Assembly: GCA_020633125.1 (NCBI GenBank)
Contig: JACKEH010000003.1
Coordinates: 27,084-91,083 of the forward strand
Origin: Sandaracinus sp.
Lineage (GTDB): Bacteria > Myxococcota_A > Polyangia > Polyangiales > Houyiibacteriaceae
Length of the DNA: 64,000 bases
Reading direction: 5' to 3'
Shown here piece by piece: positions 8,135 through 59,994 of the stretch (position 1 is its first letter; every line of letters starts with the position of its first letter). The notes beneath the pieces are model-generated. The model was not told where the DNA came from, made no database searches, and was given only the letters and a program-made list of their open reading frames with translations. The position numbers and the translations under genes were made by a program.

Positions 8135-8157
8135 GGAGAGAGGGTATCACGGGGACG

Positions 8158-8838
8158 GTGGCGGCGGTGTCGGTGGGGACGGCGGACGGTGGCGGGGCGG
8201 TGTCGGGTCGGTGGCGGTGGCGGTGTCGGTGGCGGTGTCGGGGGTGTCGGTGGCGGTGTCGGTGGCGGGGCGGTGGCGGTGGCGGTGGCGGTGTCGGTGT
8301 CGGTGGCGGTGGCGGTGTCGGTGGCGGTGTCGGTGGCGGTGTGGCGGTGTCCGTGGCGGTGTCGGTGGCGGTGGCGGTGACGGGCGGTGGCGCCGGTGAC
8401 GGTGACGGTGGCGGTGACGGTGGCGCCGGTGGCAGTGGCGGCGCCTGCCGAACTCCGCGAGCGAAGCGGCAGGGCGCGCTGCGGTCTCGGTCTCCGTCTC
8501 GGTCTCCGTCTCGGTCTCCGTCTCGGTCTCCGTCTCGGTCTCCGTCTCGGTCTCCGTCTCGGTCTCCGTCTCGGTCTCCGTCTCGGTCTCCGTCTCCGTC
8601 TCCGTCTCCGTCTCCGTCTCCGTCTCCATCTCGACTCCACTCCGTCTCCGTCTCACCGACTCTCGGGTCTCGGTCTCCGTCTCGTCTCCGTCTCCGTCTC
8701 CGTCTCCGTCTCCGTCTCGGTCTCCGTCTCCGTCTCCGTCTCCGTCTCCGTCTCCGTCTCCGTCTCCGTCTCCGTCTCGGTCTCCGTCTCGGTCTCCGTC
8801 TCGGTCTCGGTCTCGGTCTCCGTCTCGGTCTCCGTCTG
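8158..8838. repeat. Simple-sequence array: GGTGGCGGTGTC-like units, then (TCTCGGTCTCCG)n and (TCTCCG)n
   Basis: The tandem 6/12-mers are directly visible and fill the divergent intergenic region between starts 8134(-) and 8934(+). TCTCCG is a permutation of the reverse complement of GGAGAC. Confidence 0.9.
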
Positions 8839-8933
8839 ACGCCTCAATCGCCCGTAAATCACGACCAATTTCCACGTCTCCCGCTCTCCCCTAGCCTCCC
8901 CTCGAACGTCACACCCGCGTGGTACCAAGGTCC

Positions 8934-12286: not shown

Positions 12287-13569
12287 TGCCAACGCATCGC
12301 GCGGTGCACTCGCGCGGCCCAACGGTCCTGCGAGCGTGGCTCGTCGGGCATGCGGACGTAGAGCGCCGCGACCTGCGCGACCTGGCCGGCGACGCGACCC
12401 AGGCGGCGAGCGAGCGCGGGACGACGCGCGAGCACGCGCGCACCTCGAAGCAGGCCGAGGTCGGGACGCGGCGCGCGCTGGGCGAGCACGCGCATCAAGA
12501 ACGCGTCCGAGAGCACACCCTCGCCGAGCATCGCGCTGGTCTCTTCGAGCGAGAGGTCTTGGGTGAAGCGACGGAAGAGGTCTTGGGTCGCGAGCTGAAG
12601 CCCGAAGCGACGCTGGAACGCGCGTTGGTAGTGTCGGAGGTCGCCCGCGGCGAGCGCGTCGTCGAGCATCCGCGCGGCGACGAGGCCGGTGCCGACGCCC
12701 GAGCCGTGCGCGGAGAAGACCTGGCCCGCGGCGTCGCCCAGCGCCGCGACGCGGCCACGCGCGACGATCGGACGCGGGTAGACGAGCGGGATCGCGCGCG
12801 CGCCGCCGAACTCACGCTCGCCGAGGAAGTCGTGGCGTCGCACGAAGTCGTCGACCACGTGGCGGCCCGAAGGATGGCCGTCGGCGGGAATGGTGCCGGA
12901 GAGCAAGAAGACGCGGTCGCCGTGGCGACGGACGTTGAGGATCGAGTAGCCGCCCGCGACGCCGGCGTAGAGCAGCACGTCGCCGTCTTTCGCGCCGCGC
13001 TCGTCGAAGTACGCGCGTGCGGCGTCGAGGTCACGCACGTGCCGCACCTCTTGCGAGGCCACGCAGGTGTCGCGAGGCGTGGCGTGATGCGGCCCGAGCG
13101 CGTCGACGCCGGCGAGCCCGGACGCGTCGACGAAGTGGCGCGCGACGTAGGTGGTCGAGCCGGTGGTTACCCGCACCTCGTGCCCGCTCGGCGCGACGGC
13201 ACGCACGGCCTCTTCGCCGACGAGCTCCGCCCCCGCGTCACGCGCGGCGTTCTGCAGACGCGCGACCAGCGCGCGCATGTCGACCCCGAGGAACTCCTTC
13301 GGACGCACCTTCCGCATCGGCACGTCGCCCGGCTTCGCTTCGCCCGCGAAGAAGTGCGTCGTGGCCGACTCGTGCCGTTCGTCACCGCTCGGCCGGGCGA
13401 CGCCCGCTTCGTCGAACATCCAGCCCGGCACGTCGTTGATCCACGTCGCGCCCGCGCGCTCGAGGGGACGGCGATCGAGGACCAAGACACGCAGACCACG
13501 CGAGGCGGCCATCCAAGCGAGGGCGGCTCCCGCGGAGCCGGCGCCGGCGACGATCAGGTCGTAGGTCAT
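12283..13569 (-). CDS. FAD-dependent oxidoreductase (geranylgeranyl-reductase/halogenase-like fold)
   Basis: The start was moved to ATG 13569. The N-terminus MTYDLIVAGAGSAGAALA is a GxGxxG dinucleotide-binding motif, and GDAAGQV occurs later. Confidence 0.85.
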   Translation of the reverse strand: MTYDLIVAGAGSAGAALAWMAASRGLRVLVLDRRPLERAGATWINDVPGWMFDEAGVARPSGDERHESATTHFFAGEAKPGDVPMRKVRPKEFLGVDMRALVARLQNAARDAGAELVGEEAVRAVAPSGHEVRVTTGSTTYVARHFVDASGLAGVDALGPHHATPRDTCVASQEVRHVRDLDAARAYFDERGAKDGDVLLYAGVAGGYSILNVRRHGDRVFLLSGTIPADGHPSGRHVVDDFVRRHDFLGEREFGGARAIPLVYPRPIVARGRVAALGDAAGQVFSAHGSGVGTGLVAARMLDDALAAGDLRHYQRAFQRRFGLQLATQDLFRRFTQDLSLEETSAMLGEGVLSDAFLMRVLAQRAPRPDLGLLRGARVLARRPALARRLGRVAGQVAQVAALYVRMPDEPRSQDRWAARVHRAMRWQ

Positions 13570-13832
13570 CGGGGCGGCAAGGTAGCAGGTCGGGGCAAGG
13601 TGCCCCGTCGGCGTCGGTGTCCGTGTCCCTGTGGTTTTCGTCCTCGCGAGCGCGGGTACCGGAACCGCGCTTTGCGCCCCAGAGACAGAGGCCGAGACGG
13701 CGCGTCGCGCCACCGCCGCTTCGCGGCCTCACGGCTTCGCCGACACCGCGCTTCGCGCCACGAACGCCCACGAAACCCTGTCGATTCGTAGCGTAGGCGA
13801 GCCTGAGAAATGGGGGCCGCACGTCCGTGGCC

Positions 13833-14165
13833 GTGTCGCGAAGCGATGTCTCCGTCTCCGAGGTCGCGAAGCGACGGCGGCGCAACGCGACGTCTCCGTC
13901 TCTGTCTCCGAGGTCGCGAAGCGACGGAGTCGCAACGCGACGTCTCCGTCTCTGTCTCCGAGGTCGCGAAGCGACGGAGTCGCAACGCGACGTCTCCGTC
14001 TCTGTCTCCGAGGTCGCGAAGCGACGGAGTCGCAACGCGACGTCTCCGTCTCTGTCTCCGAGGTCGCGAAGCGACGGAGTCGCAACGCGACGTCTCTGTC
14101 TCCGTCGACGTCTCCGTCGTCGCGCAGCGACGTCGTCACGAAGCGACGTCCCCGTCTCCGACGCA
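13833..14165. repeat. 50-bp minisatellite, about 5 full and 2 degenerate units, each with two small hairpins
   Basis: The string aggtcgcgaa recurs at 13861, 13911, 13961, 14011 and 14061. Each unit contains GTCGC-GAA-GCGAC (e.g. 13863-13875), GTCGC-AAC-GCGAC (13929-13941) and GTCTCCGTCTCT. Confidence 0.9.
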
Positions 14166-14174
14166 GCCCCACCC

Positions 14175-15410
14175 TCACGCCTGCGCGAGCCGCTCGCTTC
14201 CCTGCCGCTCCGCGTACGGCACGTACTCCACCTTCGCATCACCGAGCAGCTCCTCGATGATCTTCCGCTGCTGCCCGAGCCCGTGCTTCGCCGCCCAACG
14301 CGTCGCGCCCGGCACCAGGCGCCGCGTGGTCTCGAGCCCGAAGCGACCGAGGGCCAAGAGCGGAAGGAGGCGCCACTGGGGCGCGGCGGGAAGACCGAGG
14401 TCGTCCACCGCCGAATCCCCGAGCGTGTAGCGCGACACCGCGACGCGATGCTGCATGAGCAGGCGCGCGAAGGCGCGCTCGAAGCCGTTCTTCGCGACCC
14501 GCTCCGGCAGCTCGTGAAGCGCGAGCGCGAGCGCGCGGCTGTCGTCGTCGGCGTAGGGGTTGGTCGCGCTGTGGATGTACGTCTGGCGTAGCCCGTCGCG
14601 GTAGTCGTGTGCGAGCAACGCGTCGTCCGCGCCGAGCACGTGGCCGACGTAGCGCCACAGATGCATCACCGCGTCACGCTCGTTCGGCGTGAAGTGGAAG
14701 CCGAGCATCGTCAGGCCGATCAGGAAGACCGCGCTGAACTCGAGCTGCGTGGCCGCCGTGTCGGCCTGGTTGATTGGCACGCCCCACGCCGCCGTGTCCC
14801 AGTCGGGGCTGCGTCGCAACGAACGACGCACCGTCGCGTGCATCAGACGCACGCGGCACGCGCTCTTGAAGCCCGCGCTGAAGCGGTCGAGCGTCTCCGA
14901 CTCCATGACGTCGAGCACGAACCGCGAGGTCTCCGCGATGCGGCGCACGACCATGCGATCGAGCGCGCCGGTGCGTGCGAGCGGCTTCACGGCGGCGGCG
15001 CTTCGGTAGCCGCCCATCAACGCCATCGCGCTCAAGATCGTCCCCGACGCGTTGCCAGGTCGCCATTGCGTGTGGCAGCCGAGACGTAGCGCGTCGCGGT
15101 CGAGCCACTCGGGCGGATGCTCGAGCGGCTCGAACCAATGCGCGAGCGGCTCGGGCGGGCTCGGCACCGCGACCAATCCCCCTTCGACCACCCGCTCGAA
15201 GAGCACGCGCGGACGTTGATGTGCGTTGTTCGCCGCCCACTCGACGAACGCGTCGGCGATCGGATCCGCCTGCATCAACCCGTCGCGCAGACGCAGCACG
15301 TCGGGGTCGTTCGGTTGGACCTCGAACCCGCCCAGCTTGGCGAGACGACGCAAACGAGGCGGAGGGTTGGCGAGACGTTGGCCCTGCCAGCGAGTCGGGA
15401 TCTCGGTCAT
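14175..15410 (-). CDS. DUF2236 / MpaB-family oxygenase-like protein
   Basis: This 411-aa ORF has the architecture I recognise from the MpaB/rubber-oxygenase-like family (…RVRLMHATVRRSL…INQADTAATQLEF…). No HMM was run to confirm this. Confidence 0.75.
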   Translation of the reverse strand: MTEIPTRWQGQRLANPPPRLRRLAKLGGFEVQPNDPDVLRLRDGLMQADPIADAFVEWAANNAHQRPRVLFERVVEGGLVAVPSPPEPLAHWFEPLEHPPEWLDRDALRLGCHTQWRPGNASGTILSAMALMGGYRSAAAVKPLARTGALDRMVVRRIAETSRFVLDVMESETLDRFSAGFKSACRVRLMHATVRRSLRRSPDWDTAAWGVPINQADTAATQLEFSAVFLIGLTMLGFHFTPNERDAVMHLWRYVGHVLGADDALLAHDYRDGLRQTYIHSATNPYADDDSRALALALHELPERVAKNGFERAFARLLMQHRVAVSRYTLGDSAVDDLGLPAAPQWRLLPLLALGRFGLETTRRLVPGATRWAAKHGLGQQRKIIEELLGDAKVEYVPYAERQGSERLAQA

Positions 15411-18688: not shown

Positions 18689-19324
18689 ATGACCTCACCC
18701 CGCACGCCGAAGCCCTCTACCTCGCGTCGTCTCGCGCTTCTCGTCGCGCTTCTCGCCGGCTGCTCGAGCGCCTCCGAACCGGAGCCGGGCTCGTCGAGCT
18801 CAGGCGGCGAGCAGGTGGCCACCGAGCAGGCGACGCCTGCCACGCCCTCCACGCCGGCGCCGACGTCGATCGTCGACGCGGAGATCCCGAACCCCTGCGA
18901 CGGCGGGACGGTGCAACTTCGCGGCGGCGAAGGGGAATACCCGAGCACGATCGAGATGGAGGAGCCCGGCAACCTCGAGGTGCGTGACGTCGGAGCGGCC
19001 GACCTCGACGGAGACGGCGTGACGGAGCACCTCGCGATGGTGCTCTGCATGCCGGGTGGCTCGGGGACCTTCGACTCGGTGCGCGCGTACCACTGGGAGA
19101 ACGGACGCTTCGTGGAGGTCGCCGCGATCGAAGGCGGCGACCGCGCCGATGGTGGGCTCGACGTGGCGCGAATCGAAGGCGACGCGGTGGTGGTCGGGCG
19201 CTTCAGCGGCGACGAAGAAGGGCTGTGTTGTCCGACGCACGTGACGGATGAGACGTGGCAGCTTCGCGACGGAGCGTTCGCGCGTACGGCGCAGGGCGAG
19301 CGTCGCGAGTACGCGAACGAGTGA
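18689..19324 (+). CDS. Lipoprotein, 211 aa
   Basis: The start is ATG 18689. It has a lipobox (LLAGCSS), a Pro/Thr linker and a DLDGDG (FG-GAP/VCBS-like) motif. Confidence 0.7.
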   Translation: MTSPRTPKPSTSRRLALLVALLAGCSSASEPEPGSSSSGGEQVATEQATPATPSTPAPTSIVDAEIPNPCDGGTVQLRGGEGEYPSTIEMEEPGNLEVRDVGAADLDGDGVTEHLAMVLCMPGGSGTFDSVRAYHWENGRFVEVAAIEGGDRADGGLDVARIEGDAVVVGRFSGDEEGLCCPTHVTDETWQLRDGAFARTAQGERREYANE

Positions 19325-19522
19325 CGACGGACCGAGACCGAGACGACGCTTCGCGCGAAAAGAGGCCGCGCAGCGGCGTTGGCTGCAAGGCAGCGGTCTC
19401 GGCCAAGCCGAGGAGGCCGCGAAGCGGCGGTGGCTGCGACGCAGCCGTCTCTGTCTCTGCCACGGACGCTGCGAAGCAGCAGTCTCGGCGAAGCCGAGGG
19501 CACGGGCACGGGCACGGGCACC
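19325..19522. repeat. Composite hairpin repeat ending in (GGCACG)4; inverted copy of 35255..35400
   Basis: It contains six hairpins with 5-6 bp stems and 3-nt loops: 19382-94, 19398-412, 19416-28, 19433-45, 19468-80 and 19484-98. GGGCACGGGCACGGGCACGGGCAC follows. Confidence 0.85.
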
Positions 19523-19584
19523 TTCACCAACACCGACACCGCCGCCCACTCGACTTCCCGCCCACACCGCGGTAGCGCGAAGCC

Positions 19585-22614: not shown

Positions 22615-23216
22615 AGAGCGCGACGACGCACGCGCGTATGCGGGTGGTGCTCGCCGACGATCAAGAGCTGCTGCGGCACGGGCTGCGTGGGCTCCTGCAG
22701 CTCGCGGACGAGGTCGAGGTCGTCGGCGAAGCGAGCGACGGGATCGAAGCGGTGGACGTGGTGCGAGCGCGCCGGCCCGACGTGCTCTTGCTCGACGTCC
22801 GCATGCCGAAGCTCGACGGCGTCGGGGTGCTTCGCGCGCTCGGAGCCGACGCGCCTCCGACGGTGATGCTCACGACCTTCGACGATCCCGTGGCGTCGAA
22901 GGCCGCGGCCGAAGCGGGGGCTCGCGCGTTTCTGCTCAAGGACGTCTCGCTCGAGACCTTGGTGGACGTGCTTCGGCGCGTGCGTGAGGGCGCGACGCTG
23001 CTCCCTCGAGCCACCAAGGAGCTCGATGCGTTGACGCCACGGGAGCGCGAGGTGCTCGCCTGTCTCGCGCGGGGCCTGTCGAACCGAGAGATCGCGGAGG
23101 AGCTCGGCACACGCGAAGGCACCGTGAAGAACCACCTCTCGAGCGTGCTCTCGAAGCTCGCGGTTCGCGACCGCACGCAAGCCGTGCTCAAGGCGATGTC
23201 GCTCGGTTGGGTGTAG
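22611..23216 (+). CDS. NarL/LuxR-family response regulator
   Basis: Its ATG overlaps the kinase stop as ATGA. It has a REC domain ([12 protein letters not shown]) and a LuxR HTH ([40 protein letters not shown]). Confidence 0.9.
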
Positions 23217-23342
23217 GCGGGCGCGCTGCGGCACGTCCCGAGCGCCATGTGCGGACTCGTGGTGTCGCTCGGTCGGGTGTAGGCCGACGCGCTGCGGCAC
23301 GTCCCGAGCGCCACGTGCGGACTCGTGGTGTCGCTCGGTCGG
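23199..23342 (+). repeat. 66-bp tandem repeat (about 2.2 copies) seeded by the last 18 nt of the response-regulator gene
   Basis: The string tcgctcgg(t/c)(t/c)gggtgtagg recurs at 23199, 23265 and 23331. Each unit contains GCACGT-N10-ACGTGC. Confidence 0.85.
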
Positions 23343-32000: not shown

Positions 32001-33901
32001 AGGCCCGTGCGACCTGCGAAGCGCGCGACGTCGGTGCGCACGAGCTCTTCGAAGGCGGGCGACGCGTCGCCTTCGAAACGCGCGAGCTGCGCGGCGACGT
32101 CGCCGTGAAAGTCGCCGCTCACGAGCAGCCACGAGCAGGCGCGGACGCTCGGCTCCGGAAGACGACGCGCGAGCACGGCGGCGAGCCCGAGCGGCGGGGT
32201 ACGCAGGCGTCCGAGCACGGCGCCGAGATCGGGCGCCGTCACGATCGCTTCACGCGTCGCTTCGTCGAGCGTGGTGGTGCCGGTCGGCGCGGGCGGCGGC
32301 GGCTTGGGCAGACGTGGCGTCGCCCACGCGCTTCGTGCCGGCTCGGCGTGATCCTTCCAACGCAGCGCCAGCGTGCGCTCGACCGCGAAAGGGAACGTCG
32401 TCGCTTCGCCGATGCGCGCCGCGAGATGGGCGCCGTCCGGAGCGCCGTCGAGCACATCCGCAACCGCGTCTCCGAAACGCCGCCCGAGCGCGCCGAGGAA
32501 ACGGTCGTCGAGCGTGCCGAGGGCTTCGGCGGTCGCGGCGCGCACGAGCGTGAGGAGGTCGGCTTCCGCGACGTGCTCCGCGAGCCGCTCCGCGAGACGG
32601 TTCGCGCGTTTGGGTTTGACCGGGGCGCCACGCACGAAGATCAGCAATCGCTCGACGACCGACGCGTACCCCTCGCGTTTGGCTTCCACCGCGAGCGCAT
32701 CACGAAGCTTCGGATCGGCGACGCTCGCTGCGAGCAAGGTGATCGCGCGTGCATCGAACGCCGCTTCGGGACGGCGGCGCGCGAGCTCGTCGATGAACCA
32801 CGCGCGGTCGCGCTTGCCGCTCGCGGGGTTCTCGTAGAGGCGCGCGACGACGCCGGGCTCGGCCAACACGGCCTCCGCGACCTCGTCGAATCCGAACGCG
32901 TCGACGAGCACGCCGTAGGGCGACTCGGGGTGCAGCGCGAGGATCGAGAGGACGGCGGCGAGGTCGAGCGCACCCGCGCGGGGACCGTCGGTGTGACGCG
33001 CGAGCGGCCCCGCGAGCAGGCGCATCGCGAGCGGCTTGCGGCTGGACACCGCGGGCAGGAGCACGTGCTGGAGCGCGACCTCACGAAGGATGGCGCGACG
33101 CTCCTCGAGCGGCTCGGCGTCGTCGACGAAGTAGTGCGCGTCGAAGCCCGCGAACAACACGGTGAGCGCACGATCGGGACGTTTGGCCCGCTCGTCCCGA
33201 AGGATCGCGAGGCCTCCGACCGGGCTCTGCCGCACCAGCTGCCACACGCGTTGCCCGAGCAAGATCCGCTGATGCGGCTCGGCGCCCTCGAACATGTCGA
33301 AGAGCCACGCCCAGAGGGCGGCCGGCTCTCGCAGCGGCGGGTAGTCCTTCGCTTCGTTGCCGATCGCGTGCGTGAGCGCGAAGTTCCGAACCTCCGCGCG
33401 TGGAATCCAGCCTTCGGTCGCGAAGACGTGAAGGTAGGGCAGCATCGGCGTCGGCGGCCGCATGCCCGGCGGCACCGCGTCGCGCACCTCGGGGTCCGCG
33501 CGAAGGGCAAAGCAGATCGGCGCCGTGTCGGGCGTCGGCCAAACGAGCGCGGCGCGGCGCACGTCGACGCGGGCGTGAAGCAACGCGTACGCGAGCCGCG
33601 CCGGATGCGGCGACGCGCGAAGCGTGGACACCGCCTCGACGCGCACGTCAGGGTCGGGGTCGTCGAGCGCCGCGATCACGGCCTCTTCGACGGCTTGGCC
33701 CCGCATGCCGGCGAGACAGCGCAGCGCGATTCGCCGCCACGCCGGATCGGCGTCCGCGAGCAGCGGAACGAGCTCCGACACGAACGCGACGCGCTGCGGC
33801 GCCGGGCCACTGCGCCAGCTGCCCGAGCGTCGCGAGGTCGTCGGGATCACGGCGACCGGCGCGTAGGTTTCGATGGAGAACGACGTCGCGCATCGGCGCA
33901 C
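29021..33901 (-). CDS. Giant (about 1626 aa) HEAT-like repeat / HExxH / vWA protein
   Basis: The real part of ORF 29021..34657 begins near GTG 33901; the upstream 252 codons only translate the microsatellite. The N-terminus has HEAT-like repeats (IAALDDPDPDVRVEAV). An HELGH motif sits at 30464-30478. The C-terminal vWA domain has a MIDAS motif, DCSGS (VAVDCSGSM…SDG). Confidence 0.75.
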   Translation of the reverse strand: MRRCATSFSIETYAPVAVIPTTSRRSGSWRSGPAPQRVAFVSELVPLLADADPAWRRIALRCLAGMRGQAVEEAVIAALDDPDPDVRVEAVSTLRASPHPARLAYALLHARVDVRRAALVWPTPDTAPICFALRADPEVRDAVPPGMRPPTPMLPYLHVFATEGWIPRAEVRNFALTHAIGNEAKDYPPLREPAALWAWLFDMFEGAEPHQRILLGQRVWQLVRQSPVGGLAILRDERAKRPDRALTVLFAGFDAHYFVDDAEPLEERRAILREVALQHVLLPAVSSRKPLAMRLLAGPLARHTDGPRAGALDLAAVLSILALHPESPYGVLVDAFGFDEVAEAVLAEPGVVARLYENPASGKRDRAWFIDELARRRPEAAFDARAITLLAASVADPKLRDALAVEAKREGYASVVERLLIFVRGAPVKPKRANRLAERLAEHVAEADLLTLVRAATAEALGTLDDRFLGALGRRFGDAVADVLDGAPDGAHLAARIGEATTFPFAVERTLALRWKDHAEPARSAWATPRLPKPPPPAPTGTTTLDEATREAIVTAPDLGAVLGRLRTPPLGLAAVLARRLPEPSVRACSWLLVSGDFHGDVAAQLARFEGDASPAFEELVRTDVARFAGRTGLTLLGHAALSRWETHAYATLDVLGDAQFAARLGAIRQTRSVLARRLVWSAVARAVALCHWHRRGRLAPLATDALLDLLVDTFDSDLGVPAARLFMGLFEAGVGEDGFRARHAKVKGLLPKLAENTRAVLSSYAKLEGLPPKATSDRTFADVDARLAAIRKSTDLPFLEATLADPVRQFAEEAVQRLFELGEVGEERLLHCLRSSVPHAIHVARFAALFSHVDRERLRAPLAYVNPATRFHLALELDAPEVAVEAACARLDGASWMESSDTEKLLARLGPRRFACALTVSPHPDAYAPAVRLCIDRGGTDDAPTDDEARAALVAFLELGTERLADLRLDAARALDRLDDDLGMPLLVADVIARREPRPWFRVPLDVLVEGALAVGTREAELAAATVVFQDPHLADDERAALALKLLQARDAGVRASATDELYDPDRPSRRDKLRTLGELFAWGVRRGRELTGRLFRIRLISERRNLGHTQLGSNVIHVAGWPVFDNALRGRDVVEGLVLHELGHQVYHSDPASRELWGKAGAAGLQHLYNLVLDEHLERRLRARDRADGDRLKRLAAYAFQHSGRDLSPVVLLGALGPRSVLLLIGNVKPSFDIASVHVSSGELLRASSASGSSFARFVRALRMGMGDRDADPLVAEALSYFDRGFKDLDTKALYDLTLKLAALFGHEAQMLRCVGTPEELPGDDPNAVERREGISDDEVQREVERILAPPSSQGSGTPRGGSRLQINVGADQGFDPIRNVVRLPPDPVAQRALAQEVMRASRRLRADLEALGLARVSVGARLAGTRLDRPRLRGLVLRGDPHVMQTRVLEPRADLFLGVAVDCSGSMVGQSMELARRFAVLLAESARGLRGVDLRVFGFTHTQLFDAGDADRSAAASLQASGGNNDAAALAHVAELARRSGRRAKLLVMISDGLPTECSVAALRGLVRRLTREGMACAQIAVRPLEERCFDHYVEVRDLSTEESVRRFGTIIARLVRQTIGAT

Positions 33902-33942
33902 CGGTGAGGGTCGGGGAAAGGAGGGGAAGGAAGCAGGAATTG

Positions 33943-34230
33943 GAGACGGTGACGGTGACGGTGACGGTGACGGTGACGGGAGACAGGGACGGGACGGAGA
34001 CAGAGACGGGGACGGAGGAGACGGAGACGGAGACGGAGACGGACGGAGACGGAGACGGAGACGGAGACGGAGACGGAGACGGAGACGGAGACGGAGACGG
34101 AGACGGAGACGGAGACGGAGACGGAGACGGAGACGGAGACGGAGACGGAGACGGAGACGGAGACGGAGACGGAGACGGAGACGGAGACGGAGACGGTGAC
34201 CGAGTCGGAGTCGGGACGGTGTCGGATACC
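33943..34230. repeat. (GACGGT)n then a near-perfect (GGAGAC)n array of about 25 units
   Basis: The repeats are directly visible. A perfect hexamer run extends from about 34047 to 34196, 40-330 bp upstream of the giant gene start. Confidence 0.95.
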
Positions 34231-35159
34231 CAGACGGAGCCGGCGGAGTCGCAAACGCTCGACCACGTCGCCCGAGTCGGCGCGCAGGCCAAGGCCGAGC
34301 ACCGACACCCCACGTACACGTCATCCCGACACTCGCGTCACTCCCACTGCGACGAACATGGTCCGGGTTTCGAAAGGGGCGACCAGCCCCTTCGCCGCGG
34401 AGCACCGCAGGAGACGACCGGAGCGAAGCGAAGCGAGGCTCCGAGGCACGGAGGGGAAGGGGGAGGCAGAGCCTCCCCAAGCGGGCGGTAGGCGCGCAGG
34501 CGAAGCCGAGCACCGCAGCCCTGCACACCGCCCGCAGCCCTGCACACCGCCGCCGCTCGCGATCCATCGATCCCACTCTCGCGCCCACGAGCCGTGTGCC
34601 GAAGCATGAAGGCTCGCCGTGGAGGCGAAGACGGTTGCCGAGGGGAGTGGGTGGCAAGCCACCGTGGGTTCACGAAGGCGATCGCTCGCTCGTTCGCCGA
34701 AGCGAACGTCCCGCTGGATGCTCCCGGCACGGCGAGCCGTGCGCGGGTGGACGAGGAGCATCCGGGTACCGCGCCAGGCGGCTCCCACCGGAGAAGCCCT
34801 CGTGACGACGCGGTCTTCGGTGGCGCCTTCCGAAGAAGACGCCGGGCACGTCCTCGCGCTCCGAAGAACGCGACCACGCACCGAATCACCCCTGGCTCGC
34901 GCGACGAACGCGCGATCGATGGACCCCGAGCGGAGGCCGTGACGATCACCGAGTGATCGCTCGCAGGACCGACGTCTTCGATCACGACACACGAAGCGCG
35001 TCGAAAACGAAGGCGGGGGTCAGTCGCTCGTGGCGCCTCCGAAGTCGGAGGGGACGCGAGCGCGGCTGGTGCTCGAGAGCGTTTCTCTCATGTGCGTCGT
35101 CCCTCCTTTCGTGGAGGCGCGGGACTGGTAAGTCGCGAGGAAGGAGGGTCAAGGGAAGG

Positions 35160-35790
35160 ATTGGCGATCGGTGGCCCTGGCGTTGGCGCTGGCGGTGGCT
35201 GTGGCGGTGGCGCTGGCGGCGACGGTGACGGTGGCGCTGGCGTTGGCGCGCTGACCTCGGCTTCGCCGAGACCGTGGCAGAGACCGAGACGGCTGCGTTG
35301 CAGCCACCGCCGCTTCACGGCCTCCTCGGCTTCGCCGTGACCGCTGCTGCGCAGCCTCCGCCGCTTCGCGGCCTCCTCGGCTCGGCCGAGACCGCTACAC
35401 GGCCGCTGCGCAGCCTCCGCTTGGCGGCCTCCGTCGCGCGAATCGCCGGGACGCGCAGCGTGAACTCCGTCTCAGCTCCGTCGCGCGAAGCGCGGGGACG
35501 CGCAGCGTCGACTCCGTCTCTGCCTCCGTCGCGCGAAGCGCGGGGACGCGCAGCGTCTGCCTCCGTCGCGCGAAGCGCGGGGACGCGCAGCGTCGTCCCC
35601 GCCTCTGGCTCCGTCGCGCGAAGCGCGGGGACGCGAAGCGTCGTCTCCGTCTCTGCCTCCGTCGCGCGAAGCGCGGGGACGCGCAGCGTCGTCTCCGACT
35701 CTGCCTCCGTCTCCGACTCTGCCTCCGTCTCCGACTCTGCCTCCGTCTCCGTCTCCGTCGCCGTCTCCGGGCACGGGCACGGGCACGCAA
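35160..35790. repeat. Composite repeat block: GGTGGCG-type 6-mers, inverted copy of the 19.4-kb hairpin repeat, six 34-bp double-hairpin units, (GTCTCCGACTCTGCCTCC)3 and (GGCACG)3
   Basis: Hairpins lie at 35256-70, 35292-304, 35343-55, 35360-72 and 35376-90. The unit CTCCGTCGCGCGAAGCGCGGGGACGCGCAGCGTC occurs six times between about 35430 and 35690. Confidence 0.9.
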
Positions 35791-35888
35791 TCCACACGAA
35801 ACAACCCCTCCCCGTCCCCGGACCCACCTTCCCCGATCGTCCTTCCCCGCGTAACGCTGCGTTCCACCGACGCGACGGGGCGCGGCAC

Positions 35889-36932
35889 ATGAACGCCACG
35901 AAGATCGTCATCCACCGCGCGGGCTCGTACGACCAGCTCCGCGTCGAGTCCCACCCCGCACCGAAGCCGAAGGCCGGCGAGGTCGCCATCGACGTGAAGG
36001 CGACCGGCGTGAACTACGCCGACGTCATCGTGCGCATGGGCCTCTACGCCTCCGCGAAGGAGCTCGTCGGTTGGCCCATCACGCCCGGCTTCGAGGTCGC
36101 CGGCGTCGTGCGCGAGCTCGGCGAGGGCGTGACGGACCTGAAGGTCGGCGACCGTGTGATCGCGGGGTTGCTCTTCGGCGGTTACGCGAGCTCGGTCGTC
36201 GCGCCGAGCACGCAGGTGTGGAAGCTCCCCGAGGCGCTCTCGTTCGAACAAGGCGCCGGCATTCCTGCCGTCTACCTCACGGGCTGGTTCGCGCTTCACT
36301 TCCTCGCGCACCCGCGCAAGGGCGATCGCGTGCTCGTGCACAGCGCCGCGGGCGGGGTCGGCTCCGTGCTCGTGCAGATGGCCAAGCGCGTCGGCTGCGA
36401 GGTCACCGGCGTCGTCGGTCGCACCGAGAAGGTCGCGGTCGCGCGCGCGCTCGGCTGCGATCACGTCATCGACAAGTCGAAGGAAGACCTCTGGGCCCGC
36501 GCGAAGGCGATCGCCCCGAAGGGCTTCGACCTCGCGCTCGACGCGAACGGCGTCGAGACGCTCAAGCACAGCTACGACCACCTGCGCCCGGCCGGCAAGC
36601 TCGTCGTCTACGGCTTCTCCACGATGATGCCGAAGACCGGCGGCAAGCCGAACTACCTCAAGCTCGCCGCGGATTGGATTCGCACGCCGCGCTTCAACCC
36701 GCTCGATCTGACGAACCAGAGCAAGAGCGTCCTGGCCTTCAACCTCAGCTACCTCTTCGATCGGATGGACCTGCTCGGCGCCGCGATGGACGACGTGCTC
36801 GCGTGGATCGAGAACGGCGAGCTGAAGCCGCCCGCGACCACGACCTTCCCGCTCTCCCAGGTGGCCGACGCGCACAAGCACATCGAGTCGGGCAAGAGCA
36901 CCGGCAAGCTCATCCTCCTTCCTCAGGCTTGA
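35889..36932 (+). CDS. MDR-family NADPH:quinone oxidoreductase / zinc-type alcohol dehydrogenase-like protein
   Basis: The start is ATG 35889. The 347-aa product has the motifs GVNYADV…PGFEVAGVV…HSAAGGVGS. Confidence 0.88.
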   Translation: MNATKIVIHRAGSYDQLRVESHPAPKPKAGEVAIDVKATGVNYADVIVRMGLYASAKELVGWPITPGFEVAGVVRELGEGVTDLKVGDRVIAGLLFGGYASSVVAPSTQVWKLPEALSFEQGAGIPAVYLTGWFALHFLAHPRKGDRVLVHSAAGGVGSVLVQMAKRVGCEVTGVVGRTEKVAVARALGCDHVIDKSKEDLWARAKAIAPKGFDLALDANGVETLKHSYDHLRPAGKLVVYGFSTMMPKTGGKPNYLKLAADWIRTPRFNPLDLTNQSKSVLAFNLSYLFDRMDLLGAAMDDVLAWIENGELKPPATTTFPLSQVADAHKHIESGKSTGKLILLPQA

Positions 36933-40077: not shown

Positions 40078-40245
40078 GTCGTTCGTTCGATGCAAGCGAG
40101 GCACGAGAAGGAACGGATCGCGGCCGACGAACGAGGCCGTCGTTCGTTCGAAGCAAGCGCGGCACGAGAAGGAACGGATCGCAGCCGAAAAGCGAAACTC
40201 GACCGTCGTCCGTTCGAAGCAAGCGCGGCACGCACGAGACGACCG
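40078..40245. repeat. Tandem repeat of about 61-66 bp, roughly 2.7 copies
   Basis: The string gtcgt(t/c)cgttcga(a/t)gcaagcg(c/a)ggcacg recurs at about 40079, 40139 and 40205. Confidence 0.8.
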
Positions 40246-56202: not shown

Positions 56203-56295
56203 GCGCGGGAGACTACCTCGGAAGTGGGATCTCCCGATTGGTCTTGCGAGGACGTACGTGTCGGGCGCTTCTCGAGTTGGTGCGGTGCCGAAGAT

Positions 56296-56634
56296 GCGGT
56301 GCATCCGCGGCTCATCACCGAGAACGCGTGCGTCGCGATCACGCGGCGGACGAGCTTTGGCAAGGGCTCCTCTTTCCTTGGGCGGGTCAGGGGATGTGGT
56401 CGAACGTGGTGCGGCGGCGGCGTGGTCGCGCTCGGGCACGACGACGGTCCCCGAAGCCCTCGGGACTCGCCGCACTCCTCGGGCCGTTGTCACCAACGAA
56501 CGTCACGCGGCGCGAGCTCCGCGACCAGCGACCGACGCCGGGGAGAAGGGGCGCGCCGTCGTGCTTCGCACGCGTGAGCGATTGGAGCACGACGGCGTCG
56601 GCGGCGTCGTCGGAACAACGACCCACCCGAGTGA
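56296..56634 (+). pseudogene. Internal-deletion, frameshifted derivative of the HUH gene (copy A)
   Basis: 56296 to about 56436 aligns with 57804 to about 57945 of the full copy. About 56437-56634 aligns with about 59020-59216, so roughly 1.07 kb is missing. It also has a 1-nt deletion (ggctcctc versus ggcttcctc). Confidence 0.75.
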
Positions 56635-56838
56635 CTTCAGACCGCCTGAAAAGGCGTCGCGCGGCCCGGAACCAGCCCGAGCCGCGCGTCGGTGTATCCG
56701 GCGTTCGACGGAGTTTCGAACCCGACGCGAGAATCCGCGCTCAGCGGACCGCGCGCGGCGCACGACGCGAGTGACACCGACCACGCGGAACGCCGGTTGG
56801 AAACGGGGAGTCGCCACGTACCTCGTACCGGAGTCGGT
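56635..56838 (+). repeat. 3' module copy M1 (most diverged)
   Basis: It begins CTTCAGACCGCCTGAAAAGGCG directly after the TGA and ends …GTCGCCACGTACCTCGTACCGGAGTCGGTG. Confidence 0.8.
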
Positions 56839-56998
56839 GGGATGCGGCGCGGCCCGCCGGTGGTGCGTGGCGGGCACAGCGTGAGGCTTTCACCACATCC
56901 AAGGATCGCTTGGGGCCCATCGCTGCGACCCACCCGCCGCATTTGCGCCATTTGCGTCTGCTGCGGGACCGGCACACCGGGTGCTAAGGCGCCGGAAC

Positions 56999-57505
56999 AT
57001 GAACCACAGATCATCCATCAGTCTCTCTGCTCTCCTCTGCACGCTGCTCTTCGTCGGCTGCGGTTCTTCGACTCCCAGCGTCGAGGAGTCGGCGGCCCTT
57101 TTCTGCGAGGGCGACTCGGCCCGCGCCGAACGCTGCGGGGACGGCGCTTTCGGGCCCGACGACCTCGCCGAATGCGAGGCCGAGATGACGGTGTTCTTCC
57201 GGTCGGCGCGGGAGGACGCGCACGACGCGATCACCGACTGCAACTCTTCGCGCGCATGCGACGAGAGCGACGACCGCTGCTTCTCGGCGGCGGGCCTCGG
57301 CCTCACGCCGAGCTCGACGGCGACCGAGTATCAGACGGCGTGCCTCGCTTACCGCGAGACATGCGACGGCATGGGTGAGGGCATCATCGACGACTACTGC
57401 TTCGCCGACATCCTCGACGATTCGGTCCTCACCCAGATGCGCTCCTGCCTGAGCGGCGCCTGCTCCGACTTCCACGACTGTGTGGAAACGGCCGCCGGCT
57501 TTTGA
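56999..57505 (+). CDS. Cys-rich lipoprotein, 168 aa
   Basis: The start is ATG 56999. It has a lipobox (LLFVGCGSS) and about 12 Cys. Confidence 0.7.
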   Translation: MNHRSSISLSALLCTLLFVGCGSSTPSVEESAALFCEGDSARAERCGDGAFGPDDLAECEAEMTVFFRSAREDAHDAITDCNSSRACDESDDRCFSAAGLGLTPSSTATEYQTACLAYRETCDGMGEGIIDDYCFADILDDSVLTQMRSCLSGACSDFHDCVETAAGF

Positions 57506-57806
57506 TCGCCTCTGCTCGCGGCGGACCTTTCGCGCGCCGAGCTCGGTCCTCGACTCTCACACGGAGTTCACCGTGATCGATTCGGTGGGACGGCTCTTCG
57601 GCGTACGGGCGGGGCTCGTGAGGGACAAGACGTCGGTGCTCGAGGGCCGGTGACAGCACACGCGAAGGTGGCGAGATCTGACCACCGGGCGCGAGTCCGG
57701 GGTGGCGGCCGCCACCTCTTCGCCGCCAATCCGCCGCCACCTCGCTCGTAGGTGCGCGAAATCGTTCGCGCGCGCGCCGGTACGAAAGGTGGAGTGGGTG
57801 GGCGCG

Positions 57807-59216
57807 GTGCATCCGCGGCTCATCACCGAGAACGCGTGCGTCGCGATCACGCGGCGGACGAGCTTTCGTAAGGGCTTCCTCTTTCCTTGGGCGGGGTCGG
57901 GGGATGCGGTCGAGCGAGGTGCGGCGGCGGCGTGGTCGCGCTCGGACGCGACGACGGCGCGATGGGATGCGGTCGGTCAGCTCTTCGCGTACTCGGCGGG
58001 CCTCGCGCAGCGCGCGACCGGTCTCGATTGGCACCAGCTCGTGCTCGTCGGCACGCACCATCACAGCCAAGCCACGCCGCGCGATCGGGAGCTCGCGGAG
58101 AGCACGCGGGTGCTGCATCGAACGATGGCGTGCGCGATCAACGCGCAGCTACGGATGCGCGGCTTCGACGCGCCGGGTTCGGTCTGGGACAAACGGCAGA
58201 CGCATTGGACGACGCTCGTCGACGTGGAGGCGGTCGGGTCGCGGCTCCTCTACGACCACCTCAACTGCGTGCGGGCGGGTTGGGTCGAGCATCCGCTCGA
58301 CGTGCCCATGGGACATCACCTCGGCTTCGAGCTGTGGAAGGCGGGTGGCGTCGCGGTGCCCAAGCCGGACAACCCGTATTTCTCGAAGCGGATGCCGAAG
58401 GAGATCGAGCTTCGGCTCACGCCGCCGATCCCGCTGGTGCGGAAGTTTGGGCGCGATGTCGACGCGATGGTGGCGTGGCTCTCCGAGCTGCGCGAAGTGC
58501 GTCGGAAGGTGCTCATGGCGGCGCGTGTCGGGCTCGTGCGTGGCGTCGCGAAGATGCGGCGCGTGCATCCGTGGGACGAGCCCGACACGGACAAGGAGAC
58601 CATTGGTCGGCGCGTGAAGATCTTCGGCGTCGGTCAGGGTGGACCCGAAGGGGAGCAGACGCGACGCGCGTGCGAGCGCGACGTTCGCGGTCATCGAGAA
58701 GGCCACGCGGCTCGCGTCGTGGCGTGGAAAGACGGCGACCACACGAGTCCCTTTCCTGCGGGCACGTTGCTCGGGCACACGTTCCTCGGGATGCCGCTCG
58801 CGCCCGCGTCGTCGGATGCGGTGCTCGGCACGCGTCACCCGTCGCGCGAGGAAGTCGAAGCCGAGTTGGCCGCGGAGTGGGCGGCGCGGGAGCGCGAGGA
58901 AGAAGAGAACCGTGCGCGTCGACGTGTGCGGGCGGAACGCCGTGCCCGCGCTGCACGAATCGCCGAAGACGACGCGTTCGAGCGTGAGCTCGAGGCGTTG
59001 CAGCAACGCGTGCGTGTGATGGACCCCAACCGAAAGGCCTCGGGGATGGGAGCGCTCCTCGAGCCACTCGCTCCGTCGAACGTCACGCGGCGCGAGCTCG
59101 GCGACGCACGACCCGACGTGGGGGAGAAGGGGCGCGCCATCGTGCTTCGCACCCGTGAGCGACCGAAGCCGCGTCGGCGTCGGCGGCGTCGTCGGAACAA
59201 CGACCCACCCGAGTGA
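57807..59216 (+). CDS. Y1-HUH transposase-like protein (IS200/REP-associated tyrosine transposase fold) with a long C-terminal extension
   Basis: It has an N-terminal …ITRRTSFRKGFLFP segment. The HUH-type motif is LVLVGTHHHS. The segment G.VWDKR…LVDVEAVGSRLLYDHLNCVRAGWVEHP matches the catalytic-Tyr helix layout of Y1 transposases. GTG 57807 is the first start inside the repeated unit; GTGs at 57789 and 57798 lie outside it. Confidence 0.7.
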   Translation: MHPRLITENACVAITRRTSFRKGFLFPWAGSGDAVERGAAAAWSRSDATTARWDAVGQLFAYSAGLAQRATGLDWHQLVLVGTHHHSQATPRDRELAESTRVLHRTMACAINAQLRMRGFDAPGSVWDKRQTHWTTLVDVEAVGSRLLYDHLNCVRAGWVEHPLDVPMGHHLGFELWKAGGVAVPKPDNPYFSKRMPKEIELRLTPPIPLVRKFGRDVDAMVAWLSELREVRRKVLMAARVGLVRGVAKMRRVHPWDEPDTDKETIGRRVKIFGVGQGGPEGEQTRRACERDVRGHREGHAARVVAWKDGDHTSPFPAGTLLGHTFLGMPLAPASSDAVLGTRHPSREEVEAELAAEWAAREREEEENRARRRVRAERRARAARIAEDDAFERELEALQQRVRVMDPNRKASGMGALLEPLAPSNVTRRELGDARPDVGEKGRAIVLRTRERPKPRRRRRRRRNNDPPE

Positions 59217-59426
59217 CTTCAGACCGCCTGAAAAGGCGTCGCGCGGCCCGGAACCAGCCCGAGCCGCGCGTCGGTGTGTCCGTCGTTCGGGCGGGTTTCG
59301 AGGGTGGCGAGAGAATCCGTTCTGAGCGGACCGCCTCCCGCGCGAGAGGTGGTTGACCTCTCACCGACCACGGCGGAACGCCGGTGTGAAACCGGGAGTC
59401 GCCACGTACCTCGTACCGTAGTCGTC
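59217..59426 (+). repeat. 3' module copy M2
   Basis: It contains the stem CGCGCGGC (59240-47) / GCCGCGCG (59263-70), the hairpins GAGAGGT-GGTTG-ACCTCTC, GGCG-GAA-CGCC and CCGG-TGTGAAA-CCGG (59381-95), and the terminal GTACCTCGTACCGTAGTCGTC. Confidence 0.85.
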
Positions 59427-59994
59427 AGGGGAGCAGACGCGGCGCGCCTGCGAGCGCGACGTTCGCGGTCATCGAGAAGGCCACGCGGCTCGCGTCGTGG
59501 CGTGGAAAGACGGCGACCACACGAGCCCCTTTCCGGCGGGCACGTTGCTCGGACACACGTTCCTCGGGATGCCGCTCGCGCCCGCGTCGTCGGATGCGGT
59601 GCTCGGCACGCGTCACCCGTCGCGCGAGGAAGTCGAAGCCGAGTTGGCCGCGGAGTGGGCGGCGCGGGAGCGCGAGGAAGAAGAGAACCGTGCGCGTCGA
59701 CGTGTGCGCAACGAACGCCGTGCCCGCGCTGCACGAATCGCCGAAGACGAAGCTTTCGAGCGTGAGCTCGAGGCGTTGCAGCAACGCGTGCGTGTGATGG
59801 ACCCCAACCGAAAGGCCTCGGGGATGGGAGCGCTCCTCGAGCCACTCGCTCCGTCGAACGTCACGCGGCGCGAGCTCGGCGACGCACGACCCGACGTGGG
59901 GGAGAAGGGGCGCGCCGTCGTGCTTCGCACCCGTGAGCGACCGAAGCCGCGTCGGCGTCGGCGGCGTCGTCGGAACAACGACCCACCCGAGTGA
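59427..59994 (+). pseudogene. 5'-truncated HUH gene copy C (last ~189 codons)
   Basis: It aligns with 58649-59216, with about a dozen substitutions by eye. It starts immediately after the M2 terminal motif. Confidence 0.8.

Follow-up and report, generated by a model that had tools for sequence, protein, structure and literature searches.

Composite hairpin minisatellites in intergenic DNA of Sandaracinus: a candidate family of REP-like palindromic repeats

Introduction

Repetitive extragenic palindromic (REP) sequences have well described features, among them the formation of facing dimers or bacterial interspersed mosaic elements (BIMEs) and a placement downstream of genes (Di Nocera et al., PMC3733652). 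Those REPs that carry the tag CGTC, which include dRS3 of Neisseria and RPE-4/6 of Rickettsia, have no dedicated transposase (Di Nocera et al., 2013; PMC3733652). These CGTC families have stems of 8-9 bp with A/T at the first two stem positions, loops of 4-5 nt and a CCA tail (PMC3733652). Another relevant structure is the DNA mini-hairpin d(GCGNAGC), which is extraordinarily thermostable, nuclease-resistant and polymerase-pausing, and whose known natural sites are the priming site of phage G4, ssiA of RSF1010 and the early promoters of phage N4 (2026 review by the discoverers; PMC13037366). Both kinds of element bear on the DNA considered here, a segment of 64,000 nucleotides (64 kb; hereafter the window, in whose positions coordinates are given) of the chromosome of Sandaracinus sp. 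(assembly GCA_020633125.1, contig JACKEH010000003.1, positions 27,084 to 91,083 of the forward strand), whose intergenic regions hold tandem arrays of double hairpins.

An initial annotation of the window had likened these arrays to REP/BIME-type repeats and had raised the idea of a relationship with a gene resembling a REP-associated tyrosine transposase (RAYT). The hairpin repeats themselves are confirmed: the sequences are present as quoted. A composite unit has been dispersed to many intergenic regions and amplified head-to-tail within each locus, where a forward block lies opposite a reverse block. On balance, the arrays seem to be hairpin minisatellites, forming a lineage-specific family (Sandaracinus, class Polyangia) of REP-like extragenic palindromic repeats, which change at the DNA level and are not demonstrably mobilised by a RAYT. 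No report of a REP-type repeat of Sandaracinus or other myxobacteria was found in the searchable literature.

The window has a guanine plus cytosine (GC) content of about 70%, and its proteins recur in several metagenome-assembled genomes (MAGs) of Sandaracinus sp. (Polyangia, Myxococcota). These assemblies are GCA_020633155.1, GCA_020633095.1, GCA_020633115.1, GCA_020633175.1, GCA_041389665.1, and GCA_020430885.1; the window is 100% identical to one of them over 13 kb and 97.8-99.7% identical to the others. Further loci that were compared are designated by L-numbers. No tRNA was found in the window, and Rfam scans at gathering and E-value thresholds gave no relevant family, including none in the window.

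A common unit plan with preserved pairing

One common plan emerged when all double hairpins of the window were collected together with those of about 85 kb of other Sandaracinus DNA: pyrimidine-rich hexamers, (GTCTCS)2-3, then GAG, hairpin 1 (N5-GAA-N5'), GGN, hairpin 2 (N5-6, NNN, N5-6'), and GTCTC. The hairpins reported by the initial annotation were all recovered, namely GTCGC-GAA and GTCGC-AAC in array A1, CGCGC-GAA and GACGC-GCA in array A2, and GCCGC-, GCTGC- and CTCGGC-GAA in the block at 19.4 kb (A3); its unit of 34 bp at 35430-35690 was an error, since Tandem Repeats Finder gives a period of 37-48 bp (about 6 copies at 35427-35711). At least eight distinct unit types share the architecture across five intergenic regions, and a sixth region was found in a strain variant. 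The stems of hairpin 1 are GTCGC, GCCGC, CGCGC, and GCTGC, and those of hairpin 2 are GTCGC, GGCGC, GGCTGC, GACGC, GCTGC, and CTCGGC. The inner GC-GAA-GC of hairpin 1 is invariant, so all 8 unit types carry there the core GCGAAGC, which has the C:G closing pair and GNA loop that define the mini-hairpin sequence GCGNAGC. Hairpin 2 has variable loops (AAC, AAA, GAC, GCA, GAA, AAG, and CAA), and in A2 and at L250 it contains GCGCAGC or GCGAAGC. Copies within a locus match at 85-97%. In A1, for which Tandem Repeats Finder reports 5.2 copies of period 50 at 13848-14106 with 97% match, both hairpins have identical stems, and the unit is therefore also an imperfect palindrome of 29 nt; its minimum-energy fold is a single 11-bp hairpin with a C(GGA)G loop. 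In A2, the combination of CGCGC-GAA-GCGCG, GG, and GACGC-GCA-GCGTC is seen five times.

As had been claimed, the stems differ between loci and yet stay paired. In a set of 11 distinct units, 97.3% of the cells are paired and 5 of the 11 pairs have changes on both sides. This covariation was reached by none of 500 shuffles, and sliding the partner columns destroys the pairing. Degenerate units at the edges of the arrays lose it. The same data bear on another possible explanation, in which the palindromes are not hairpins but recognition sites, i.e., iteron or operator arrays for a dimeric DNA-binding protein. In its favor, the units contain perfect 13-bp palindromes, which recur regularly upstream of genes. 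However, the outer bases of the half-sites vary by locus and complementarity alone is conserved; furthermore, some arrays lie in convergent intergenic regions and no regulator gene is consistently adjacent. This explanation is thus very improbable.

The abundance of the hairpins was compared with that of dinucleotide-preserving shuffles, a control of the kind named in the initial annotation, and the shuffles did not match the observed density. The window has 21 GAA loops on a perfect 5-bp stem, and the shuffles have 2.2 +/- 1.4, an effect that is overstated, as tandem copies are not independent; the reverse form, with a TTC loop, occurs 9 times against 2.05. Because of this lack of independence, intergenic and coding DNA were also compared. 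Hairpins of the form C(GNA)G with a stem of at least 4 bp reach 1.8 per kb in the former versus 0.29 per kb in the latter; for all other triloop hairpins the two densities are equal (7.75 vs 7.89 per kb). One 22-mer taken from the unit (GCCGCGAAGCGGCGGNGGCNGC) has 5 matches at 3 loci, with 0.04 expected. When the same 22-mer was used for a scan of metagenomes, it gave 120 isolated matches without array context, which are probably chance or coding matches; this search was uninformative and was set aside.

These controls also largely refute the notion that the arrays are an effect of chance or composition at 70% GC, an artefact of MAG assembly, a misread coding repeat, or a CRISPR array. In its favor, the folding of the units is about matched by that of GC-rich shuffles, and any GC-rich 9-mer has many tandem arrays in large databases. 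Against it, GAA hairpins are restricted to intergenic DNA and number about 10 times what the shuffles predict, the 22-mer far exceeds its expectation, and A2 is identical in five independent assemblies. The spacers are themselves repeated and cas genes are absent; the periods of 50, 37-48, and 17 bp are not multiples of 3, which indicates that the arrays are not coding. Hence this explanation is hardly credible. It is important to note that the signal is one of palindromy and architecture, not of bulk stability.

Bipartite loci and their dispersal

A covariance model was built from the 11 units and used to scan 333 kb, comprising the window, other Sandaracinus loci, other Polyangia loci, and one Janibacter locus. 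The initial annotation had proposed a scan of this kind for the genome. Scores above 40 bits were obtained only in intergenic DNA, in five regions within about 150 kb of Sandaracinus sequence: three in the window (at 13.57-14.17, 19.32-19.58, and 35.1-35.9 kb), L250 6243-6572 (a convergent intergenic region, where the array begins about 20 nt past a stop codon), and L252 16583-16752 (a divergent one). This corresponds to a density of about one locus per 30 kb, with about 31 units at 5-6 intergenic regions. The units of A1 score 56-64 bits (at 13856, 13906, 13956, 14006, and 14056), and the reverse block left of A2 gives matches of 59-64 bits at 35283-35328 and 35334-35379.

The initial annotation had overlooked the reverse-oriented blocks (13691-13772 and 35222-35421) and the hexamer tails. 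Each locus of the window is in fact bipartite, with reverse units to the left of A1, of A2, and, in degenerate form (19330-19360), of the block at 19.4 kb, and with the hairpin-1 ends of reverse and forward blocks facing each other (Table 1). Between the reverse blocks (13.7 kb and 35.3 kb) and the forward units of the 19.4-kb block, identity is about 90%, which indicates that the family has been dispersed besides being locally amplified. Hexamer microsatellites, such as (GTCTCC)n, (GGGCAC)3-4, and (CCACCG)n, extend outward from the blocks, and repeat-only intergenic DNA of similar style occupies 8160-8837 and 33942-34243.

Table 1. Repeat features of the window (positions in the 64-kb stretch)
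Feature	Position	Strand	Description
Repeat-only intergenic region	8160..8837		(CGGTGG)~40, central palindrome 8453-8491, (GTCTCS)~58
Degenerate hexamer tail	13606..13640	-	Minus strand CAGGGACACGGACACCGACGCCGACGGGGCAC; between reverse block and start codon of FAD-oxidoreductase gene; read from sequence
Reverse block opposite A1	13691..13772	-	Covariance-model match of 62.4 bits at 13691-13733 (-); minus strand reads GCGC-GAA-GCGC, CGGC-GAA-GCCG, GCCGC-GAA-GCGGC-GGT-GGCGC-GAC-GCGCC-GTCTCGG
Array A1	13809..14165	+	Five full 50-bp units; degenerate edge units 13809-13855 and 14112-14155; unit (GTCTCY)3-GAG-GTCGC-GAA-GCGAC-GGA-GTCGC-AAC-GCGAC
Degenerate reverse half-unit	19330..19360	-	Minus strand GCGCGAAGCGTC then GTCTCGGTCTCGGTC; read from sequence
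Block A3	19358..19505	+	Three units, 17-nt sub-periods; covariance-model matches of 49-66 bits; hairpins GCCGC-GCA/GAA-GCGGC, GGCTGC-AAG/GAC-GCAGCC, CTCGGC-CAA/GAA-GCCGAG
(GGGCAC)4 tail	19498..19521	+	64 nt upstream of start codon of TPMT-family gene (19585)
(GTCTCC)~51 microsatellite	33942..34243	-	Repeat on minus strand; in the same 2.3-kb non-coding region as A2; upstream of a 1043-aa minus-strand gene
Hexamer tail (CCACCG/CCAGCG)n	35169..35249	-	Repeat on minus strand; outward tail of the 35222-35421 reverse block
Reverse block left of A2	35222..35421	-	3-4 units, e.g. GCCGC-GAA-GCGGC-GGAG-GCTGC-GCA-GCAGC
Array A2	35429..35698	+	Six units, period 37-48 bp, first unit degenerate; unit CGCGC-GAA-GCGCG-GG-GACGC-GCA/GAA-GCGTC
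Outward tail of A2	35690..35787	+	(CGTCTC/CGACTC/TGCCTC)n, then (CGGGCA)3.3; 100 nt upstream of start codon of ADH-family gene (35889)

With respect to the neighboring genes, A1 lies in an intergenic region of 605 bp between two minus-strand genes, encoding an MpaB-family oxygenase (stop codon at 14175) and a flavin adenine dinucleotide (FAD) oxidoreductase (start codon at 13569, confirmed by a separate check). The array ends 10 nt from the stop codon of the MpaB-family gene, which converges on it, and the reverse block is found 122-200 nt upstream of the FAD-oxidoreductase start codon. The block at 19.4 kb is located between the genes of a lipoprotein-like protein (stop codon at 19322-19324) and a TPMT-family methyltransferase; its degenerate half-unit starts 6 nt past the former stop codon. 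A2 lies upstream of a gene for a zinc-type alcohol dehydrogenase (ADH family). The 2.3 kb at 33579-35888 that surround A2 have no called gene. They hold (GGAGAC)~51, two copies of a 19-bp repeat, and, at 34.3-35.15 kb, about 800 bp that are not repetitive. In this region, an open reading frame (ORF) of 23 codons is present on the minus strand at 35020-35091, behind a strong ribosome-binding site, AAGGAGG.

Some other repeats were noticed. Two tandem repeats have no relation to the hairpin units: one of 61 bp in 2.4 copies at 40078-40232, in the intergenic region between a diacylglycerol-kinase-family gene and a sigma-54 activator gene (both on the minus strand), and one of 66 bp in 2.2 copies at 23197-23342, where a response-regulator gene ends. 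Outside the myxobacteria, Janibacter terrae (Actinomycetota) has at L009 7553-7647 a tandem unit of 33 bp, GAGGAGGTCGCGAAGCGACCGTCTCCGCTCCCT, in an array that starts right after a stop codon; this unit and that of A1 have in common the 16-mer GAGGTCGCGAAGCGAC and the GTCTCC that follows it. As the two phyla are unrelated, the likeness could be due to convergence or to a shared constraint.

Identity and turnover between strains

A2 is base-for-base identical in five independent assemblies, and A1 and A3 are identical in a sixth one, which rules out an assembly artefact. The comparison of strains was dropped as a test of conservation, because divergence between assemblies is patchy and the arrays lie within identical blocks. 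In other species, the nearest MpaB orthologues have at most 69% identity and are not syntenic, and they offer no orthologous intergenic region for comparison.

A different picture is given by the intergenic region at 8135-8933. In GCA_020633155.1, this region has non-homologous repeat content between flanks that are about 99% identical: (GGGGAC)n, one reverse double-hairpin unit of the Sandaracinus family, and (ACCGACTCCGCC)n, in place of the (CGGTGG)n, a different central palindrome, and (GTCTCS)n of the window. The repeat regions can therefore turn over quickly, with the G-rich left and C-rich right sides being kept. The region is a divergent one between the genes of an M12-like protease and an esterase, consists almost wholly of hexamer microsatellites, and measures 690 bp in the window versus 440 bp in the other version (L001 reverse complement and L474); a short central anchor, CGGCAGGGCGC(GC)TGCGG, is kept in both.

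The contigs of three assemblies end at the (GGAGAC)n tract of the 33579-35888 region, near which the 19-bp repeat is also found. The arrays thus break short-read assemblies.

The Y1-like gene and the question of a RAYT

The gene that the initial annotation called RAYT-like is most likely that at 57789-59216, which encodes a protein of 475 aa. The protein has a weak likeness to the Y1/HUH group, and its profile match is below the cut-off. The NCBIfam model REP_Tyr_transpos matches residues 72-171 with E=2e-4 and 21.1 bits, for a cut-off of 80. Pfam gave no match and a profile search of Protein Data Bank (PDB) sequences no relevant one, and the hhalign comparison with RayT of Escherichia coli (E=0.12) covers 22 columns that correspond to the catalytic-Tyr motif alone (YDHLNCVRAGWV vs YIYINPVKHGWV). 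The AlphaFold model is unusable, with a predicted local distance difference test (pLDDT) value of 44. On the other hand, HHH, Y155, and the motif Y-D-x-x-N-x-V-x-A-G-W-V are invariant in 20 homologues. Judged by its sequence, the product would be only weakly Y1/HUH-like and marginally RAYT-like, and its family may be a divergent and undescribed family of Y1/HUH transposases.

The Y1-like gene family is multi-copy, and its homologues are confined to Sandaracinus and Polyangiales assemblies. One identical protein is encoded in two different gene neighborhoods (L251 vs L252), which indicates that the element is mobile. Its conserved ends consist, upstream, of GTAG followed by GTGCGCGAAATCG (given also as GGCGGCCGCCAC and, further on, GTAGGTGCGCGAAATCG) and, downstream, of a tail of about 200 nt that finishes near GGTACCTCGT. 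In the five gene copies these ends are unrelated to the arrays, as are the terminal hairpins of the window copy, CGGCG-GAA-CGCCG and CCGGG-GTGAA-CCCGG. A search for inverted repeats around the window copy found no REP-like pair. None of the five copies (window and L248-L252) is flanked by array units, and none has them within 10 kb except in unrelated intergenic regions. The gene at 57789-59216 is the full copy in a cluster (56270-61850) where a mobile element of about 1.75 kb is repeated in tandem, once in full and several times in part, with truncated paralogues at 59497-59994 and 60469-61515 and a remnant at 56270-56850. The cluster directly adjoins a segment (61926-64000) in which GC falls to 58% and which contains a type IIG-like restriction-modification gene (domains N6_Mtase, Eco57I, and M_Eco57I_C), with a PLD-like gene just past the end of the window; this segment is probably a horizontally acquired island.

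The arrays would be true REP/BIME elements if a RAYT-type HUH tyrosine transposase, such as the product of 57789-59216, recognized their hairpins on single-stranded DNA and mobilized them. Several facts agree with this: the gene belongs to a multi-copy mobile family of the same genome, its HHH and Tyr motifs are invariant, a weak profile match exists and the catalytic-Tyr region of RayT aligns, and the array units are dispersed and arranged in facing blocks. However, the NCBIfam score is far below the cut-off, the gene copies have conserved ends of their own, and the tetranucleotide GTAG is absent from all unit types, whose flanks are GAG on the 5' side and GTCTC on the 3' side. Moreover, the variation of stems between loci is unfavourable for a sequence-specific transposase. 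With these five gene copies, the REP-RAYT idea fails its defining test, namely a RAYT gene between inverted copies of the same REPs, and is not supported, and mobilization by such an enzyme is unlikely, although an enzyme may act in trans on the array units.

GAA-cored arrays in other genomes

In 185,579 species genomes, a search for three CGCGAAGCG cores at a spacing of 20-50 nt gave at least 120 arrays in very diverse phyla, including genomes of 39-48% GC; the source species is not among the genomes reached by the listed matches. In viral contigs, 45 array-like stretches have the GAA loop, and the loop-permuted controls AAG, AGA, and ACG have 72, 54, and 18, respectively. Raw array counts are thus meaningless, since the controls give similar numbers, a result that had been counted above on the side of chance. 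The stems are more informative. In the viral contigs, 15 of 34 GAA arrays have a stem extended by at least 2 bp beyond the CGC-GAA-GCG core, versus 9 of 107 for the AAG, AGA, and ACG arrays (odds ratio 8.6, Fisher p=1e-5). Among the genome matches listed, 50 of 120 are extended to this degree, with 8.7 expected. The control-loop viral arrays have mostly periods divisible by 3, which suggests that they are coding repeats. There is, therefore, a specific association of the GAA loop with true hairpin arrays. With 82 tandem arrays from 1.6 Mb of loci, an additional unbiased sample was too small to show a loop preference.

A crude gene finder applied to these other taxa placed 17 of the extended GAA arrays in tandem intergenic regions, 13 in convergent ones, and only 2 of 32 in divergent ones; the arrays are frequently within 30 nt of a stop codon. 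In tandem intergenic regions they have no strand preference, with 9 sense and 8 antisense to the flanking genes. In DNA the two orientations are equivalent; the absence of bias is thus an argument that the GAA loop is of importance there, and not in RNA. A tally by eye of six complete-genome matches, with unverified origins, had no evident signal of replication-strand bias. In some Bacteroidales arrays, the hairpin alone (TACGCGAAGCGTA or bare GCGAAGC) is conserved and the spacers differ, a drift that suggests a constraint on the hairpin itself. Examples are L029 (Bacteroidales RUG538), L023, and L107 (Bacteroidota MAGs of 39-55% GC), where TACGCGAAGCGTA or bare GCGAAGC/GCGCAGC is repeated in intergenic DNA every 16-22 nt or 45 nt, with A/T-rich spacers that differ between copies.

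Tandem C(GAA)G-cored mini-hairpin arrays might then constitute a widespread class of DNA-level structural repeats, in which the stability of d(GCGAAGC) drives amplification or is exploited for priming, pausing, or insulating; this generalization is rather doubtful. The class may span many bacterial phyla, including low-GC Bacteroidales and Lachnospiraceae, as well as viral contigs, and the Sandaracinus double-hairpin family with its oriented C-rich tails would be an elaborate local version of it. To our knowledge, there is no earlier description of such a class.

Origin of the arrays and a possible role in RNA

According to the reading that we prefer, the Sandaracinus arrays would arise and change at the DNA level. 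Hairpins of the GCGAAGC type formed in single-stranded DNA would favour polymerase pausing and slipped-strand or unequal exchange, which in turn would produce tandem amplification and rapid turnover. Palindromy could be kept by selection for the hairpin, or by a hairpin-templated correction of one arm from the other, and the arrays would be tolerated only outside genes. Any effect on the cell would be secondary and modest, for example through stem-loops at transcript ends or in 5' leaders, or by insulation between genes. The intergenic placement and the lack of strand bias in other taxa fit a DNA-level REP-like element, and not an RNA with a required loop.

Several points weigh against this proposal. 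The folding energy of the units is unexceptional for about 70% GC, with z-scores from -2.3 to +0.9 on either strand and with DNA or RNA parameters. Most units of the covariation set had been chosen by a scan for perfect hairpins. The copy numbers of A1, A2, and A3 are constant across 5-6 assemblies, a constancy that neither supports nor refutes instability because the arrays lie in long blocks identical between strains. GCA-cored arrays are not enriched for extended stems (3 of 26), a result for which a general rule of GNA-loop mini-hairpins was rejected. Furthermore, hairpin formation, slippage, and any function are inferred from the sequence. Finally, 9 of 11 hexamer tails (a count that includes loci L250, L252, and the strain variant) have their C-rich and G-poor strand in the sense direction of the gene next downstream. 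A model of mutation alone leaves this unexplained, and it is a hint of a role, possibly in transcription, that depends on orientation. The composition of the tails on the sense strand is 0.40-0.60 for C and 0.17-0.31 for G, and the two exceptions are the A1 and L250 arrays, both toward the 3' end of a convergent gene.

The tails are found at 8187-8425, 8484-8837, 33942-34243, 35169-35249, 35690-35787, 19498-19584, and 13570-13690, and at L252 16440-16820. Their composition resembles that of Rho-utilisation (rut) sites, and the orientation is kept even when one motif has taken the place of another between strains. Among them, the G-tract hexamers (GGGCAC)3-4 and (GGGGAC)~13 have the spacing of canonical G-quadruplex motifs; they are located at 19498-19521, 35768-35787, L252 16750-16800, and in the L001 variant of the 8.2-kb region, where they adjoin hairpin blocks and lie 60-100 nt upstream of start codons.

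The main rival is a role at the RNA level, namely that the arrays are cis-regulatory structures under structural selection, acting in the protection of mRNA 3' ends, in the termination of transcription, or as rut-like C-rich 5' leaders that attenuate the downstream gene. The orientation of the tails speaks for it, as do the preserved pairing, the start of 3 of the 5 Sandaracinus loci at 6-20 nt past a stop codon, the preference of arrays in other taxa for tandem or convergent intergenic regions, where they often abut stop codons, and a few G:T variants that would be G:U wobbles in the GAA orientation. Nevertheless, scans of the array regions (13400-14400 and 34900-36000) found neither promoter-like sites nor Rho-independent terminators, that is, a GC hairpin with a U-tract, and Rfam offers no match. 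The GAA strand is unbiased in tandem intergenic regions (9 vs 8), the degenerate edge units lose pairing, and the RNA folding z-scores are weak. The conserved loop is also DNA-specific in character, and we know of no special stability of the GAA loop in RNA, unlike in DNA. A primary role in RNA is rather unlikely, and the DNA-level origin is preferred to it.

Significance of the family

The Sandaracinus family would add to the REP-like elements a class that lacks an identified transposase and has an unusual composite unit and a strict GCGAAGC core, in Polyangia genomes, which are large and rich in regulation. Through this core, bacterial extragenic repeats are tied to a well-characterised DNA structural motif whose earlier associations were confined to the priming and promoter sites of phages and plasmids. 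The most novel lead is the cross-phylum association, backed by controls, of the GAA mini-hairpin core with real hairpin arrays: the fact that the GAA-cored arrays, and not the loop-permuted ones, are real palindromes provides a testable handle on why some hairpins become minisatellites. From a practical point of view, the array loci may be strain markers and sources of expression variation; this potential follows from the breaks that arrays cause in assemblies and from at least one intergenic region that differs wholly between near-identical strains.

Comparison with known systems

The analogy with REP/BIME repeats is partly supported and is a fair description of appearance. As in the GTAG-tagged REPs and BIMEs of Enterobacteria and Pseudomonas and in REP doublets forming hairpins (REPINs), the Sandaracinus repeats are short GC-rich extragenic palindromes (13 nt, or 29 nt for the A1 unit, compared with 20-40 bp in REPs; all strong covariance-model matches are intergenic), clustered, and with opposite orientations facing each other, as in the reverse blocks 13691-13772, 19330-19360, and 35222-35421, which lie opposite forward blocks. 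In number, REPs typically exceed 100 copies dispersed over a genome, and the Sandaracinus units amount to about 31 in the roughly 150 kb sampled. In both cases the variation of the stems keeps the pairing. The broader set of GAA-cored arrays is also like REPs in its preference for sites downstream of genes and its scarcity in divergent intergenic regions (PMC3733652). Membership, however, fails because there is neither a GTAG tag nor a flanking RAYT gene. In contrast to REPs, the Sandaracinus stems are of 5-6 bp with 3-nt loops, the unit comprises two hairpins and a hexamer spacer, the stem sequence is locus-specific, and near-identical units follow each other head-to-tail within the blocks, an arrangement that is rare among REP dimers. 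The REPs tagged with CGTC are similar in their lack of an associated transposase, their head-to-head organisation, and the C|GTC that follows hairpin 2 in most Sandaracinus units, but the G/C-rich stems of 5-6 bp, the 3-nt loops, and the absence of a CCA tail set the Sandaracinus family apart from them.

Mycobacterial interspersed repetitive units (MIRUs) and variable-number tandem repeats (VNTRs) are comparable as tandem intergenic units of 40-60 bp in a GC-rich genome, and a related region of Sandaracinus is variable between strains. MIRUs encode small ORFs by which the flanking genes are coupled, and their structure is not based on hairpins, whereas the Sandaracinus periods are not multiples of 3 and the unit consists of two palindromes. 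CRISPR arrays share the regular spacing of short palindromic repeats; in Sandaracinus, by contrast, the units have a period of 17-50 bp with spacers made of repeated hexamers, and no cas domains occur among the gene calls.

The mini-hairpin provides a structural parallel for the core of the unit. Its formation here is predicted from sequence, and the DNA parameters of ViennaRNA give modest z-scores. The known d(GCGNAGC) elements (Hirao) occur singly, where priming starts or at promoters in single-stranded DNA of phages or plasmids, and are not chromosomal tandem arrays; the Sandaracinus arrays have no primase or virion RNA polymerase context. With the promoters of phage N4, the A1 unit shares the geometry described for them (PMC13037366), as its central loop is C(GGA)G and the stem has 5 bp.

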